Shown here piece by piece: positions 5,532 through 57,189 of a stretch of 64,000 nucleotides of DNA; position 1 is the stretch's first letter; each line of letters begins with the position of its first letter. Source of the DNA: Enterobacteria phage GiZh; the sequence record NC_054903.1. One strand, written 5' to 3'. The notes beneath the pieces were generated by a model that was not told the origin of the DNA, did not search any database, and was given only the letters and a program-made list of their open reading frames with translations. The position numbers were made by a program, and so were the translations under genes.

Positions 5532-5561
5532 ACTATACCATAGTCTTGTCAGCTTGTAAAC
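5532..5561 (-). promoter_or_regulatory. T4-type early promoter upstream of dmd
   Basis: minus strand: AT-rich UP, GTTTACA, 17-nt spacer, TATAGT. Confidence 0.5.
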
Positions 5562-10978: not shown

Positions 10979-11215
10979 TCAAATGCAAGTAGTAATTACT
11001 CCAGTAGTGCTTATGCAGGTATTACCCATTTGCACACCTAAAGATCCATTTGTATTCACATGAAGATTATCATCAATTTTAACTGATATTTTACCATTAG
11101 TGTGAATAACGGTGCTAGATTCAATCACAGGTTGAGTATCATTTTCAACACTAACAAATGGAACTGCTGCTAATGCAACTAAACAAACTGCTAAGCATCC
11201 CATAACAATTTTCAT
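10979..11215 (-). CDS. small secreted protein
   Basis: ATG 11215-11213 with GGAG RBS gives MKIVMGCLAVCLVALAAV... signal peptide; track start 11227 is TTG inside the promoter leader. Confidence 0.5.
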   Translation of the reverse strand: MKIVMGCLAVCLVALAAVPFVSVENDTQPVIESSTVIHTNGKISVKIDDNLHVNTNGSLGVQMGNTCISTTGVITTCI

Positions 11216-11252
11216 TTTATTCTCCAAATCTGTATCAGTAGTTGATAGTTGT

Positions 11253-11282
11253 ATAGTACCATGGAAGAACAGTCTTGTAAAC
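11253..11282 (-). promoter_or_regulatory. T4-type early promoter
   Basis: minus strand GTTTACA, 17 nt, TACTAT plus AT-rich UP; part of a 34-nt block identical to 54261-54294. Confidence 0.55.
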
Positions 11283-11369
11283 AGTTTTGTGAAAATTTTT
11301 TAGGGAATTCTAAAGGTCCAGAATCATCTGTTTTTCATAAGTATAGATTTATATTACTTGTATGAAAAA

Positions 11370-11385
11370 GGGACCCGGAGGTCCC
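11370..11385 (-). terminator. intrinsic terminator downstream of gene 43
   Basis: GGGACC-tccg-GGTCCC hairpin followed by U-run on minus strand. Confidence 0.6.
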
Positions 11386-11398
11386 TAGATTTATTCTA

Positions 11399-26977: not shown

Positions 26978-27063
26978 TAAACAACTTTGTGAAAATTATT
27001 TTAGGGAATGATAAGAAGGGAACGATAGCTTAGAATGGTAATATACAGAATGTAAGAAAGAAA

Positions 27064-37557: not shown

Positions 37558-37584
37558 TTTTGTTCCTCCGTAGTTGATAGTTGT

Positions 37585-37615
37585 ATAGTACCACAGAGGA
37601 ACGGTCTTGTAAACA
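37585..37615 (-). promoter_or_regulatory. T4-type early promoter
   Basis: minus strand GTTTACA, 17 nt, TACTAT; contains the conserved agttgatagttgtatagtacca block. Confidence 0.55.
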
Positions 37616-38020: not shown

Positions 38021-39001
38021 TTATTTCAGAAGAGTAACCTCAGCAATTTCTTCCCAACCATTTTTGTCGGTCATAATAAAGTCAGCAAGATAAAGAGCAG
38101 TACGCAGTGAAACATTGCGTAAACGATTAACATTGACTTTCATCCATGATAATGCTTTATAAGTTTCTTCATCAGAAAGACCACGCTTTTGCATCATGTC
38201 GGTTGAAAGAATAACATCTTCAACCCTGACCATAATTTCTTCATTAGTGTGAACACCCAAATCTAAATAAACTGAGCGGGACACTAATGCTTGTAAGTGT
38301 GGAGCAAGTTTAGTACCACGGTCTAATTCGCGGTCAATGTCAACGTTTGTGATAAAAACAATCGTTCCTTTAAATTCAAACTCACGGTCAATGCCTTTTT
38401 CTTCTAAGTAAGAAGACGCAGTGCTCCAGCAGACTTTACGGGTCTCTCCAGTGTCCAGAGCAGCTTTTAGAAGATTAAGAATGTCCATATCAGAGAAAAC
38501 ATCCACATCATCAATCAAAAGGACAGAATTCTCTTCACGATTATTCCAAAGCTGCTCATAAAGACCAATACCAGAGATTTTACCATTAATGCTTTTATAT
38601 TCAATGTATCCAATATCATTTGCTTTATTTAAAGCTTTATCTAAAGAATACGTTTTACCAATACCTGCTGCGCCGGAGATAATTAATGAACGAATATTTC
38701 CATTAATAATACCATTCGTCATCATTCCCATAACATTAAATCTTTTATTAATGCGGGTTTTCATATCTTCATATGATTCTTTAACTTCTTCAACTTTTAC
38801 ACCATCATATGAAATATCTGATTTGTAAACCCAAACACCGCGACGTTTACCGTCAATTTCAACAAAAACTTTACCATCTCCTTGTGCATCTACCGGAGCA
38901 TTATCTGGGAACCATTCGCCTAAGAGCTCAAAAGTTCCAGAGATTTCTTTACCGAAGTAGATACCCTTATTGATAGTTACAGTTTTCATTTTATTCTCCA
39001 A
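38021..39001 (-). CDS. P-loop NTPase (AAA-like)
   Basis: 326 aa; Walker A GAAGIGKT, Walker B VLLIDDVD. Confidence 0.6.
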   Translation of the reverse strand: MENKMKTVTINKGIYFGKEISGTFELLGEWFPDNAPVDAQGDGKVFVEIDGKRRGVWVYKSDISYDGVKVEEVKESYEDMKTRINKRFNVMGMMTNGIINGNIRSLIISGAAGIGKTYSLDKALNKANDIGYIEYKSINGKISGIGLYEQLWNNREENSVLLIDDVDVFSDMDILNLLKAALDTGETRKVCWSTASSYLEEKGIDREFEFKGTIVFITNVDIDRELDRGTKLAPHLQALVSRSVYLDLGVHTNEEIMVRVEDVILSTDMMQKRGLSDEETYKALSWMKVNVNRLRNVSLRTALYLADFIMTDKNGWEEIAEVTLLK

Positions 39002-39023
39002 ATCCGTATCAGTTGATAGTTGT

Positions 39024-39054
39024 ATAGTACCATAAAGCTTTATGCTTGTAAACC
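39024..39054 (-). promoter_or_regulatory. T4-type early promoter
   Basis: minus strand GTTTACA, 17 nt, TACTAT, AT-rich UP; conserved block copy. Confidence 0.55.
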
Positions 39055-39086
39055 GTTTTGTGAAAAATTTTTGAAATAAAAAAAAA

Positions 39087-39104
39087 GGGAGCCCGAAGGC
39101 TCCC
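39087..39104 (-). terminator. intrinsic terminator
   Basis: minus strand GGGAGCC-UUCG-GGCUCCC followed by nine U. Confidence 0.7.
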
Positions 39105-39106
39105 TA

Positions 39107-42603: not shown

Positions 42604-42800
42604 GCCATGTGAGTTGCAACTTCATCACACATATTATAACGTTTCTTAAGAAATTCTACAAGTTCTTCACTAGTAACTTCATCCATGTCGACGAAAAAAT
42701 CACCATTAATGATGACGTAGATATTTCCTTCTTGATTGAGTGCTTCAATTTTCATGATGTTCTCCTCTTTATCCGATAGTTGTATAGTATCACAGCTCAA
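42567..42800 (-). CDS. hypothetical protein
   Basis: 77-aa ORF downstream of early promoter. Confidence 0.4.
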
Positions 42801-46979: not shown

Positions 46980-47010
46980 ATTATACCACAGTCAAGAGGA
47001 AAAGTAAACA
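46980..47010 (-). promoter_or_regulatory. T4-type early promoter upstream of regB
   Basis: minus strand GTTTACT, 17 nt, TATAAT. Confidence 0.55.
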
Positions 47011-53975: not shown

Positions 53976-54239
53976 TTATTTCATATTATTGAAATATTCT
54001 TCAGCAATTTCATCATTATCATGATAAACTTTAGAAGACAGTTTAACATAACTTTCAGCAGTGAACATGTTAATCACAACCTTTACAGTATACCACTGAC
54101 CATCTTCATTACCCATTACTGCGTAAGTTTCAAACAACGGATGATCAGGACCGATAACTTTAATATCATTCACTGTACGACCGAAATCTTCTGAAACACA
54201 TTTCATAAAGAAGTTGAACAGCTCACCGTAATTATCCAT
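53976..54239 (-). CDS. hypothetical protein
   Basis: ATG 54239-54237 with GGAGAA RBS (MDNYGELFNFF...); track start 54302 lies upstream of the promoter -10. Confidence 0.5.
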   Translation of the reverse strand: MDNYGELFNFFMKCVSEDFGRTVNDIKVIGPDHPLFETYAVMGNEDGQWYTVKVVINMFTAESYVKLSSKVYHDNDEIAEEYFNNMK

Positions 54240-54282
54240 TTCATTCTCCAAGTTATTTTCTGTATCAGTAGTTGATAGTTGT

Positions 54283-54313
54283 ATAGTACCATGGAAGGAC
54301 AAGGATGTAAACC
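54283..54313 (-). promoter_or_regulatory. T4-type early promoter
   Basis: minus strand GTTTACA, 17 nt, TACTAT; 34-nt block 54261-54294 identical to 11231-11264. Confidence 0.55.
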
Positions 54314-54445
54314 GTTTTGTGAAAAAATTTTTAAAAAGTTTTGGGGAATTCTAGGGCAGGGAGGGGAAATCAAAGGATAGGATAATATATTATAAAGGGT
54401 AGAAACTAAATGATGTCTAGAGAGGCCTGGAAAGGCCTAGATACC

Positions 54446-54475
54446 AAAAAGCCCCAACCTTTCGGCTAGGGCTAA
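54446..54475 (-). terminator. intrinsic terminator downstream of internal-protein gene
   Basis: GC-rich hairpin with GAAA loop and UUUUU on minus strand; near-duplicate of 55001-55027. Confidence 0.6.
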
Positions 54476-55344: not shown

Positions 55345-55420
55345 TGGTCGAGGCAGTAGGGATCGAACCTACGACCTAGGACTTAGAAGGTCCTTGCTCT
55401 TCCTTCTGAGCTATGCCTCG
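55345..55420 (-). tRNA. tRNA-Arg (anticodon UCU)
   Basis: cloverleaf folded by hand: acceptor CGAGGCA/TGCCTCG, anticodon loop CTTCTAA, T-arm GGTTCGATCC, 3' ACCA. Confidence 0.85.
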
Positions 55421-55424
55421 GATT

Positions 55425-55499
55425 TGGCGGACGTGATAGGATTCGAACCTATAACCAATCGCTTAACAGGCGATCGCTCTGCCATTGAGCTACACATCC
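55425..55499 (-). tRNA. tRNA-Asn (anticodon GUU)
   Basis: acceptor GGATGTG/CACGTCC, anticodon loop CTGTTAA, T-arm GGTTCGAATCC, 3' GCCA. Confidence 0.85.
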
Positions 55500-55503
55500 A
55501 AAT

Positions 55504-55590
55504 TGGTGGGGAGTGATGGAGTCGAACCACCCGAGTCGCAATGACAATGGATTTACAGTCCACACCGCTACCTCTACGGGATAACTCCCC
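55504..55590 (-). tRNA. tRNA-Tyr (anticodon GUA)
   Basis: acceptor GGGGAGT/ACTCCCC, anticodon loop CTGTAAA, long variable arm, T-arm GGTTCGACTCC, 3' ACCA. Confidence 0.85.
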
Positions 55591-55602
55591 TAATTCATAA
55601 TT

Positions 55603-55677
55603 TGGTGGCCCTGGGTGGAATTGAACCACCATCTGGCGATTATGAGTCGCTTGCTTGAACCTTCCAGCTACAGGGCC
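55603..55677 (-). tRNA. tRNA with anticodon CAU (Ile2 lysidine-type or Met)
   Basis: acceptor GGCCCTG/CAGGGCC, anticodon loop CTCATAA, T-arm GGTTCAATTCC, 3' ACCA. Confidence 0.8.
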
Positions 55678-55678
55678 T

Positions 55679-55754
55679 TGGTGCTGATTGACGGAATCGA
55701 ACCGCCGACCTTCTCATTACAAGTGAGTTGCTCTACCTACTGAGCTAAATCAGC
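55679..55754 (-). tRNA. tRNA-Thr (anticodon UGU)
   Basis: acceptor GCTGATT/AATCAGC, anticodon loop CTTGTAA, T-arm GGTTCGATTCC, 3' ACCA. Confidence 0.85.
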
Positions 55755-55759
55755 AAAAC

Positions 55760-55849
55760 TGGCGGAGGCGATAGGATTTGAACCTATGAGTCGCCGGAGC
55801 GACTGCCGGTTTTCAAGACCGGTGCATTAAACCACTCTGCCACGCCTCC
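55760..55849 (-). tRNA. tRNA-Ser (anticodon UGA)
   Basis: acceptor GGAGGCG/CGCCTCC, anticodon loop CTTGAAA, long variable arm, T-arm GGTTCAAATCC, 3' GCCA. Confidence 0.85.
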
Positions 55850-55851
55850 AG

Positions 55852-55925
55852 TCTCCATACAAGGATTTGAACCTTGGACCTCCTGATCCCAAATCAGGCG
55901 CTCTACCAAACTGAGCTACACGGAG
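55852..55925 (-). tRNA. tRNA-Pro (anticodon UGG)
   Basis: anticodon loop TTTGGGA, T-arm GGTTCAAATCC; CCA not encoded. Confidence 0.8.
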
Positions 55926-55935
55926 TAAATTAAAT

Positions 55936-56009
<74 letters not shown>

Positions 56010-56013
56010 AAAT

Positions 56014-56101
56014 TTGGTGCGAGAAGTGGGACTCGAACCCACAAGGAAATCATTCCGCAGCATTTTAAGTGCTGTACCTTTACCAATTTGACCATTCTCG
56101 C
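56014..56101 (-). tRNA. tRNA-Leu (anticodon UAA)
   Basis: acceptor GCGAGAA/TTCTCGC, anticodon loop CTTAAAA, long variable arm, T-arm GGTTCGAGTCC, 3' ACCA. Confidence 0.85.
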
Positions 56102-56102
56102 G

Positions 56103-56175
56103 CTGGGAATAAAGGACTCGAACCTTTGCATCCTGGAATCAAAATCCAGTGCCTTACCAACTTGGCTAATTCCCA
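56103..56175 (-). tRNA. tRNA-Gln (anticodon UUG)
   Basis: acceptor TGGGAAT/ATTCCCA, anticodon loop TTTTGAT, T-arm GGTTCGAGTCC; CCA not encoded. Confidence 0.85.
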
Positions 56176-57130: not shown

Positions 57131-57158
57131 TTTATTCTCCTCGGTAGTTGATAGGGTA

Positions 57159-57189
57159 ATAGTATCACTACCCTATCTAAAAGTAAACT
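57159..57189 (-). promoter_or_regulatory. T4-type early promoter
   Basis: minus strand GTTTACT, 17 nt, TACTAT. Confidence 0.5.

Follow-up and report, generated by a model that had tools for sequence, protein, structure and literature searches.

The block repeated at four sites in Enterobacteria phage GiZh is very probably the core of paralogous T4-type early promoters

The window analyzed here is a stretch of 64,000 nucleotides from Enterobacteria phage GiZh (NC_054903.1). In it, the gene e.8 begins on the minus strand with an ATG at 54239-54237, and a 39-nt sequence at 54259-54297 lies upstream of it. This sequence is one copy of an exact repeat and would form the region from about -21 to +18 of the e.8 early promoter, with a TGG at 54291-54289 and the -10 hexamer TACTAT at 54288-54283. 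The region upstream (54306-54335) contains the -35 element, (G)TTTACA at 54312/54311-54306, and an A/T-rich UP-like tract (AAAAATTTTTTCACAAAACG) that is also found in copies of the T4 early promoters (Pe). Still farther upstream is a stem-loop (54450-54473) with a T run that resembles an intrinsic terminator, giving the PeSL-type arrangement of a terminator followed by an early promoter. The orthologous T4 promoter is likewise located upstream of e.8. A 3-kb stretch around this site is 96-99% identical to many genomes of Tequatrovirus, the T4-like coliphages, and the window is evidently Tequatrovirus DNA.

A preliminary description of this DNA had reported an identical 34-nt block at 11231-11264 and 54261-54294. 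We found exact copies of the 34-mer (TGTATCAGTAGTTGATAGTTGTATAGTACCATGG) at exactly these two places, with 0 expected in shuffled sequences. The true length of the exact repeat is 39 nt rather than 34 (11229-11267 and 54259-54297), and the likeness between the two full copies extends upstream on the minus strand to take in the -35 element and the A/T-rich tract (identity at 76 of 115 positions). A 22-nt core occurs exactly four times, at 11240-11261 (copy A), 37572-37593 (copy B), 39011-39032 (copy C) and 54270-54291 (copy D), again with 0 expected in shuffles. The preliminary description had given copy C at its correct position and copy B one base off, at 37571-37592. The whole-window motif search that it had proposed as a check reproduced the repeat and also recovered two weaker relatives of a 24-nt form of the core that had been missed, each with 5 mismatches. 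One of these, TGATACTATACAACTATCGGATAA at 42769-42792 on the minus strand, is a putative early promoter on the rI.-1 side that has the region from -10 to +3 in common with the four copies and differs beyond it. The other, TGATACTATTACCCTATCAACTAC at 57144-57167 on the minus strand, belongs to a sister subfamily and would be the trna.4 early promoter. A 91-nt query across copy D matched 1532 places in 514 phage records, or about three per genome, including four places in T4. A full-text literature search with the sequence of the block itself returned unrelated matches only.

The functional orientation of the block, which had not been stated previously, is the minus strand. In that orientation every copy consists of an A/T-rich tract, GTTTACA-N17-TGG-TACTAT-ACAACT-A(+1)-TCAAC..., a GGAG Shine-Dalgarno (SD) sequence and an ATG, and a consensus scanner scored each of the four in this way, TTTACA-17-TACTAT with an upstream TG. 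The elements that define the Pe class were present at all four copies: GTTTAC at -36 to -31 (here GTTTACA), a 17-bp spacer, a TGn extended -10, a -10 hexamer of the form TAnnnT, and an A+T-rich UP-like tract at approximately -40 to -60. The tract has the form AAAAA(T)nCACAAAAC in copies A, C and D, and is weaker in copy B (GAAAGAAGTTTCTTTTAG). Each copy lies upstream of an early gene that has an SD and an ATG and points toward it, and each is orthologous to a recognized T4 Pe. We conclude that the repeated block very probably represents the core, with the extended -10, the start site and the first bases of the transcript, of four paralogous T4-type early promoters that depend on sigma70 and read on the minus strand. 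A promoter on the plus strand was considered and rejected, as the candidate hexamers there (TTGATA and TATAGT) are spaced just 4 nt apart and all signals are on the minus strand.

The genes downstream of the four promoters were named by comparison with the T4 annotation. Copy A (core, 11229-11267) has its -10 at 11258-11253 and its -35 element, TTTACA, at 11281-11276; the upstream region (11276-11386) also includes the A/T-rich tract and, after gene 43, a terminator-like stem-loop at 11386-11369. The genes that follow copy A are an open reading frame of 78 aa and then imm.1. Copy B (37572-37593) precedes nrdC.8 and has its -10 at 37590-37585 and its -35 at 37613-37608. This copy has no terminator upstream, where its -35 element directly adjoins the end of nrdC.9, and its leader is only 21 nt, with an SD (GGAGG) at 37569. 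Copy C (39011-39032) precedes nrdC.10, with the -10 at 39029-39024 and the -35 at 39052-39047. A terminator-like stem-loop (AGGGAGCCTTCGGGCTCCCT, 39086-39105) with a T run is located directly upstream of the promoter, after nrdC.11, and the leader lacks the TAC found in copies A and D. Copy D precedes e.8.

By sequence comparison, the four copies are orthologs of the T4 promoters located before imm.1 (Pe26.4), nrdC.8, nrdC.10 and e.8. The T4 genome (NC_000866) contains an identical 24-nt core (TGGTACTATACAACTATCAACTAC) upstream of imm.1, nrdC.8, e.8 and motA and on the denB side. The T4 nrdC.10 promoter has this core with 2 mismatches, the frd.3 promoter has a form that diverges after ...CTATC, and a variant with 3 mismatches is found upstream of motB. 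Seven T4 promoters are identical in the core from -15 to +3, and six of these are identical to +6. In the record of phage fPS-90, the label 'predicted early promoter' is given to the nrdC.8 site and to the two promoters that precede nrdC.10. The proposal of the preliminary description that the four sites are early promoters is thus supported both by the anatomy of the Pe class and by orthology with T4.

Published transcription starts in T4 allowed the start sites in the window to be placed. The start of the Pe26.4 transcription unit, the T4 ortholog of copy A, is at 27,044, and the starts at Pe148.6, Pe40.4 and Pe35.3 are at 150,727, 41,225 and 35,662, respectively (Patterson-West 2018). In a scan of T4, the published start was the seventh nucleotide after the -10 hexamer for all four of these coordinates, and Pe133295 of the T4 record obeys the same rule. 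With orthology and this spacing rule, the +1 would be the A at 11246, 37578, 39017 and 54276 (minus strand) in copies A to D. Using the numbering of Nolan 2006, in which GTTTAC is at -36 to -31 and the -10 hexamer at -12 to -7, the 34-mer extends from -18 to +16 and the 22-mer from -15 to +7. As had been suggested, the block therefore runs from the -10 into the transcribed leader, with +1 at the seventh nucleotide after TACTAT; placed by orthology, the start falls within the block, which is not wholly upstream of +1. None of six predicted start coordinates is present in the supplementary text of a T4 NAD-cap/dRNA-seq preprint. Given the orthology with T4, host RNA polymerase holoenzyme would transcribe the open reading frame of the imm region together with imm.1, nrdC.8, nrdC.10 and e.8 immediately after infection. 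Both the early timing and the start sites in GiZh are predictions from orthology and spacing.

We compared the start regions of the subfamily with those of other early promoters to determine how far conservation past the -10 belongs to the class as a whole. Among 25 T4 Pe outside the subfamily, the most frequent bases included C at -3 (13/25), T at -1 (17/25), A at +1 (17/25), T at +2 (16/25), C at +3 (13/25), A at +4 (15/25) and A at +5 (15/25). Of 20 early promoters scanned in RB69, A(+1)-T-C is present in 15 and A-TCAA at +1 to +5 in 11. Orthologs of e.8 with 79-86% protein identity have kept TG.TACTATA.A.CTATCAA, and their spacers and leaders cannot be aligned. Past about +5, small indels are found among orthologs. 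Judged from these comparisons, the constrained part beyond the -10 is just the region from about -3 to +5 (c-C-T-A-T-C-A-A), a class-wide consensus of T4 early promoters. In agreement with this, T4 early promoters have been characterized as 'uber' promoters of the UP/-35/TGn/-10 type that have further regions of consensus (Hinton 2010). The CTATCAA start region probably has a role in the choice of start site and in initial transcription. By eye, the first transcribed bases show little sign of a sigma70-dependent pause element: the sole -10-like hexamer is AACTAT at -4 to +2, and no hexamer with both A2 and T6 is present in +1 to +16.

The identity past the -10 would then have two causes. One is selection on C-T-A(+1)-T-C-A-A as a class-wide promoter consensus. 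The other would apply to the end of the spacer, the discriminator and +6 to +16, which probably owe their likeness to shared ancestry and to recurrent homologous exchange between promoter-leader cassettes of the same genome, either as concerted evolution or as modular shuffling of the PeSL type. The features specific to the subfamily are the -10 variant TACTAT, the discriminator ACAACT and the sequence from +6 to +16.

Comparison with one outgroup genome, RB69 (76 kb, positions 1-76000 of NC_004928), bears on the second cause. The dominant cores in T4 are TACTAT-ACAACT-A-TCAAC (seven promoters, one with ...A-TCGG) and TACTAT-TACCCT-A-TCAA; those in RB69 differ. The RB69 paralogs are TATAGT-AGTCCT-A-TCAA (five promoters, one with ...A-TTAA) and TATTAT-AGACCT-A-TC.. 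(three promoters, two with TCAA). The RB69 promoters orthologous to those of nrdC.8 and nrdC.10 read TATTAT-AGACCT-A-TC.., the imm.1 promoter reads TACTAT-CTTTCT-A-TCAA, and the T4 block is retained, nearly identical, at the e.8 promoter only. Paralogs are therefore alike within a genome and orthologs are unlike between genomes, a pattern that suggests, from this one outgroup, that promoter cassettes evolve in concert or are exchanged.

Mosaic junctions were found at several promoters. In T4, the frd.3 and nrdC.10 promoters have approximately 70 nt upstream in common and diverge inside the block, and the promoter-leaders of ndd.4 and nrdC.8 are alike from -36 to the ATG. The discriminator of the ndd.4 promoter is TACCCT in T4 and ACAACT in an IMG/VR locus (L024). 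In phage fPS-90 and a second IMG/VR locus (L019), the nrdC.10-type terminator and promoter are intact to ...TATCAA; the leader beyond that point is a different one and leads into two small genes. Past this insertion, nrdC.10 is driven from a second early promoter (TACCCTATCAA type). The two-gene cassette with its own promoter (positions 1-615 of the Yersinia phage fPS-90 locus and near 1602 in L019) lies between direct repeats, TATCAAAACAAA, located within the start regions of the two promoters. The denB-side promoter is followed by different genes in four IMG/VR loci (L012, L021, L022 and L026). In the window, the extra open reading frame between the Pe26.4 ortholog and imm.1 has ATGAAAAT at both junctions. 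This frame (10979-11215, minus strand) encodes 78 aa with a signal-peptide-like N-terminus (MKIVMGCLAVCLVALAAVPF...) and is absent from T4, in which the promoter directly precedes imm.1; it also follows a Pe26.4-type promoter in several T4-like contigs of IMG/VR (L014, L015, L017 and L023).

The T4/PST version of the PeSL element has been described as TTTACW-N17-TAYWAT with a stem-loop and an SD/ATG, and in RB49/phi1 crossovers have been shown to occur in the interval from the -10 to the ATG (Arbiol 2010, Comeau 2014). The junction pattern seen here, with swaps right after ...TATCAA, matches this published model. The cassettes in the window resemble PeSL cassettes in combining a terminator stem-loop with an early promoter and an SD/ATG, in recurring within plastic regions, and in their link to gene insertion or replacement between close relatives. 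The upstream stem-loop terminator is present at copies A, C and D, and copy B differs from PeSL cassettes in having none. Indels and replacements between close relatives, with junctions inside the element, were found for fPS-90, L019, the extra frame after Pe26.4 and the denB side. Mini-circles as well as crossovers have been demonstrated for RB49/phi1 rather than for GiZh. The configurations of fPS-90 and the window are not simple reciprocal products of one crossover. For the same reason that cassette exchange is invoked, namely common descent with repeated homologous exchange, the copies could act as short homology patches for the gain, loss and replacement of gene cassettes. The preliminary suggestion that the block could seed recombination between distant loci fits both the comparative evidence (fPS-90, L019 and RB69) and the PeSL model. 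Copies B and C are in direct orientation, 1,439 bp apart. No B x C deletion junction was found among 614 matching phage records, in which the best matches cover just 60% of the query; exchange at these two copies is therefore either not frequent or not tolerated.

History clearly contributes to the identity, as indicated by the sharp, pair-specific boundaries of identity and by the different dominant cores in T4 and RB69. These same observations could be taken to mean that the identity is a mere by-product of recent duplication and that the repeated DNA has no further function. We give this practically no credence. Every copy has a full -35, TGn and -10 at the correct distance from a downstream SD and ATG, named T4 early promoters are found at the orthologous sites, and the e.8 core is kept across genera while its flanks diverge.

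The cores that are identical in seven T4 promoters from -15 to +3, and in six to +6, might also be read as an operator. The block contains direct repeats around +1 (ACTAT-N3-ACTAT-N2-ACTAC) at which a phage or host DNA-binding protein could switch off or modulate a subset of promoters, and early shut-off persists without ModA or AsiA by a strategy that is unknown (Hinton 2010). We see only a very slight chance that this is so. There is no evidence of any binding factor, and the invariant positions coincide with the elements contacted by RNA polymerase and with the class-wide start consensus. The RB69 promoters at orthologous sites have different discriminators, which argues against a conserved operator, and the presence of mosaic breakpoints within the block is easier to reconcile with exchange than with a unit under selection. 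More broadly, ACAACT-A-TCAACTAC... might be a recognition site, in DNA or in nascent RNA, for a candidate factor that coordinately modulates a subset of T4 early promoters. Early shut-off and Alt-dependent stimulation of only some Pe are candidate roles for such a factor. The chance of this is slight, and nothing in the present evidence supports either the operator or the nascent-RNA site.

If the block is the core of an early promoter, as we favor, its transcribed part would belong to the leader of each mRNA. The leaders are 21-37 nt, unstructured, and end in the GGAG SD and ATG. Prediction of RNA structure, which had been proposed as a check, gave nothing beyond shuffled sequences: minimum free energy folding of the four leaders (+1 to +70) was no better than that of shuffles, with z from +0.3 to +1.9. 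An Rfam search returned no family match to the leaders, only ten tRNAs at 55348-56175. The sole local motif is a 4-bp hairpin at the 5' end (AUCA-ACUAC-UGAU) that copies A and D can form.

This hairpin is one reason to consider that +1 to +16 (AUCAACUACUGAUACA) is a functional element of the leader RNA, either an mRNA-stabilizing 5' hairpin or a protein or sRNA site that co-regulates the genes. Also in keeping with such an element, ATCAACTACTGATAC is common to T4 motA, the denB side, imm.1, e.8 and motB, and additional sequence 5' of GGAG stimulates cleavage by RegB/S1 but is not specifically required (Durand 2006, PMC1702504). However, the predicted stability of the hairpin is just -0.6 kcal/mol, and copies B and C lack it. 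The segment varies among orthologs by uncompensated indels and substitutions that disrupt the stem (AACTACTGATAC, AACTGATAC, AACTAATAC and AACCACTGATAC), and the segment is wholly lost from the e.8 orthologs of diverged phages. Taken with the shuffle-level folding and the lack of an Rfam match, these observations make a leader element unlikely, and we rejected leader RNA structure as the basis of the conservation; no structured cis-regulatory leader RNA (riboswitch, attenuator or 5' stabilizer hairpin) was found. The preliminary description had also proposed a separate shared regulatory site, since conservation seemed to exceed the needs of a promoter. With constraint ending at about +5, unstructured leaders and no Rfam match, this was not borne out, and nothing points to a further regulatory site within the block.

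The recognizable post-transcriptional motif that the leaders share appears to be a RegB/S1 site at the SD, downstream of and outside the block. The RegB/S1 consensus is GGAGRAYARAA, with GGAGAAUAAAA as the optimum in T4 (Durand 2006, PMC1702504). This 11-mer is found exactly in the leaders of copies A and C and with 10 of 11 positions in that of copy D; the counterpart in copy B, GGAGGAACAAA, does not conform. Copy A has GGAGAATAAAA at 11225-11215, overlapping the ATG at 11215-11213 (SD region, 11213-11225). In copy C the same sequence is at 38999-38989 and overlaps the nrdC.10 ATG at 38989-38987 (SD region, 38987-38999). The site in copy D is GGAGAATGAAA at 54249-54239 (SD region, 54237-54249); it overlaps the e.8 ATG, and its T4 counterpart is the exact consensus. 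The exact optimum, GGAGAATAAAA, is the SD of three early genes in the window, the third being at 57140-57130 (minus strand). In these respects three of the four leaders carry at the SD, exactly or nearly, the same motif as RegB/S1 targets in T4 early leaders. In T4, the leader of e.8 is closely paralogous to that of motB, which is a proven good RegB substrate (Durand 2006, PMC1702504). Judging from the motif, RegB/S1 would shut off the early mRNAs of copies A, C and D post-transcriptionally.

Inverted repeats were observed around the -10 of many T4-type Pe. They bracket the hexamer, with one arm in the spacer and the other at approximately -8 to +5. In T4, perfect stems of at least 7 bp bracket the -10 in 8 of 30 promoters, compared to 0.72 expected by permutation (maximum of 4 in 1000). 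Bracketing repeats in the window (minus strand) include 57176-57169/57158-57151 at the trna.4 Pe and 53967-53960/53947-53940 at the e.7 Pe. Other promoters of this kind on the minus strand have their -35 at 5561, 42001, 53589 and 57816, and the regB Pe is at 47009; in the regB promoter the 3' arm includes the SD. The ACAACTATCAAC subfamily is mostly without a bracketing inverted repeat. In the PeSL papers, the stem-loops are placed upstream of the -35. The T4 record (NC_000866) notes that a 14-nt part of Pe133295 (133300-133313) is the 'inverted complement of previously reported sequence'. This segment makes up the greater part of the loop (TTGTGATATTATAG, including the -10) enclosed by the arms of a 7-bp inverted repeat (GGTAGAG/CTCTACC); either the earlier sequence was in error or the loop can truly invert.

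The tRNA region upstream of copy D was also inspected. Ten contiguous tRNA genes are located at 55348-56175 (minus strand), with no gap that would fit a gene the size of segB; the T4 counterpart has eight tRNAs interrupted by the segB homing endonuclease gene. The interval of approximately 875 bp from the terminator at 54473 to the first tRNA, which in T4 contains rnaC and rnaD, gave no Rfam match.

The four promoters have the same -35, 17-bp spacer, TGn, -10 (TAnnnT), UP-like tract, +1 A and minus-strand orientation as the T4 Pe of Pe26.4, nrdC.8, nrdC.10, e.8, motA, the denB side and frd.3. The T4 core is identical to the copies in the window, the sites are orthologous, and nothing essential differs; the window differs from T4 in the extra 78-aa frame between the Pe26.4 ortholog and imm.1 and in single-base changes in the leaders. 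T7 A1, lambda PL and T5 N25 are likewise near-consensus, multi-element promoters that are used by E. coli sigma70 holoenzyme and outcompete host promoters. T4-type Pe differ from these in having GTTTAC instead of TTGACA at the -35, in their T4-specific start-region consensus, and in the link to ADP-ribosylation of the alpha subunit by Alt/ModA.

The repeat is real and far beyond chance, yet it is ordinary, belonging to a thoroughly described and already known class (T4 Pe and PeSL-type cassettes), and it reveals no new regulatory element. Two features may be worth a systematic look across the hundreds of Tequatrovirus genomes: the homogenization of cores within a genome as opposed to their divergence between T4 and RB69, and the frequent inverted repeats that bracket the -10. 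For GiZh, the value of the repeat is mainly in annotation, as four early transcription units can be located from it, each with a probable start site. For the T4-like phages, it marks short patches of homology at which genomes may gain, lose and swap accessory genes.
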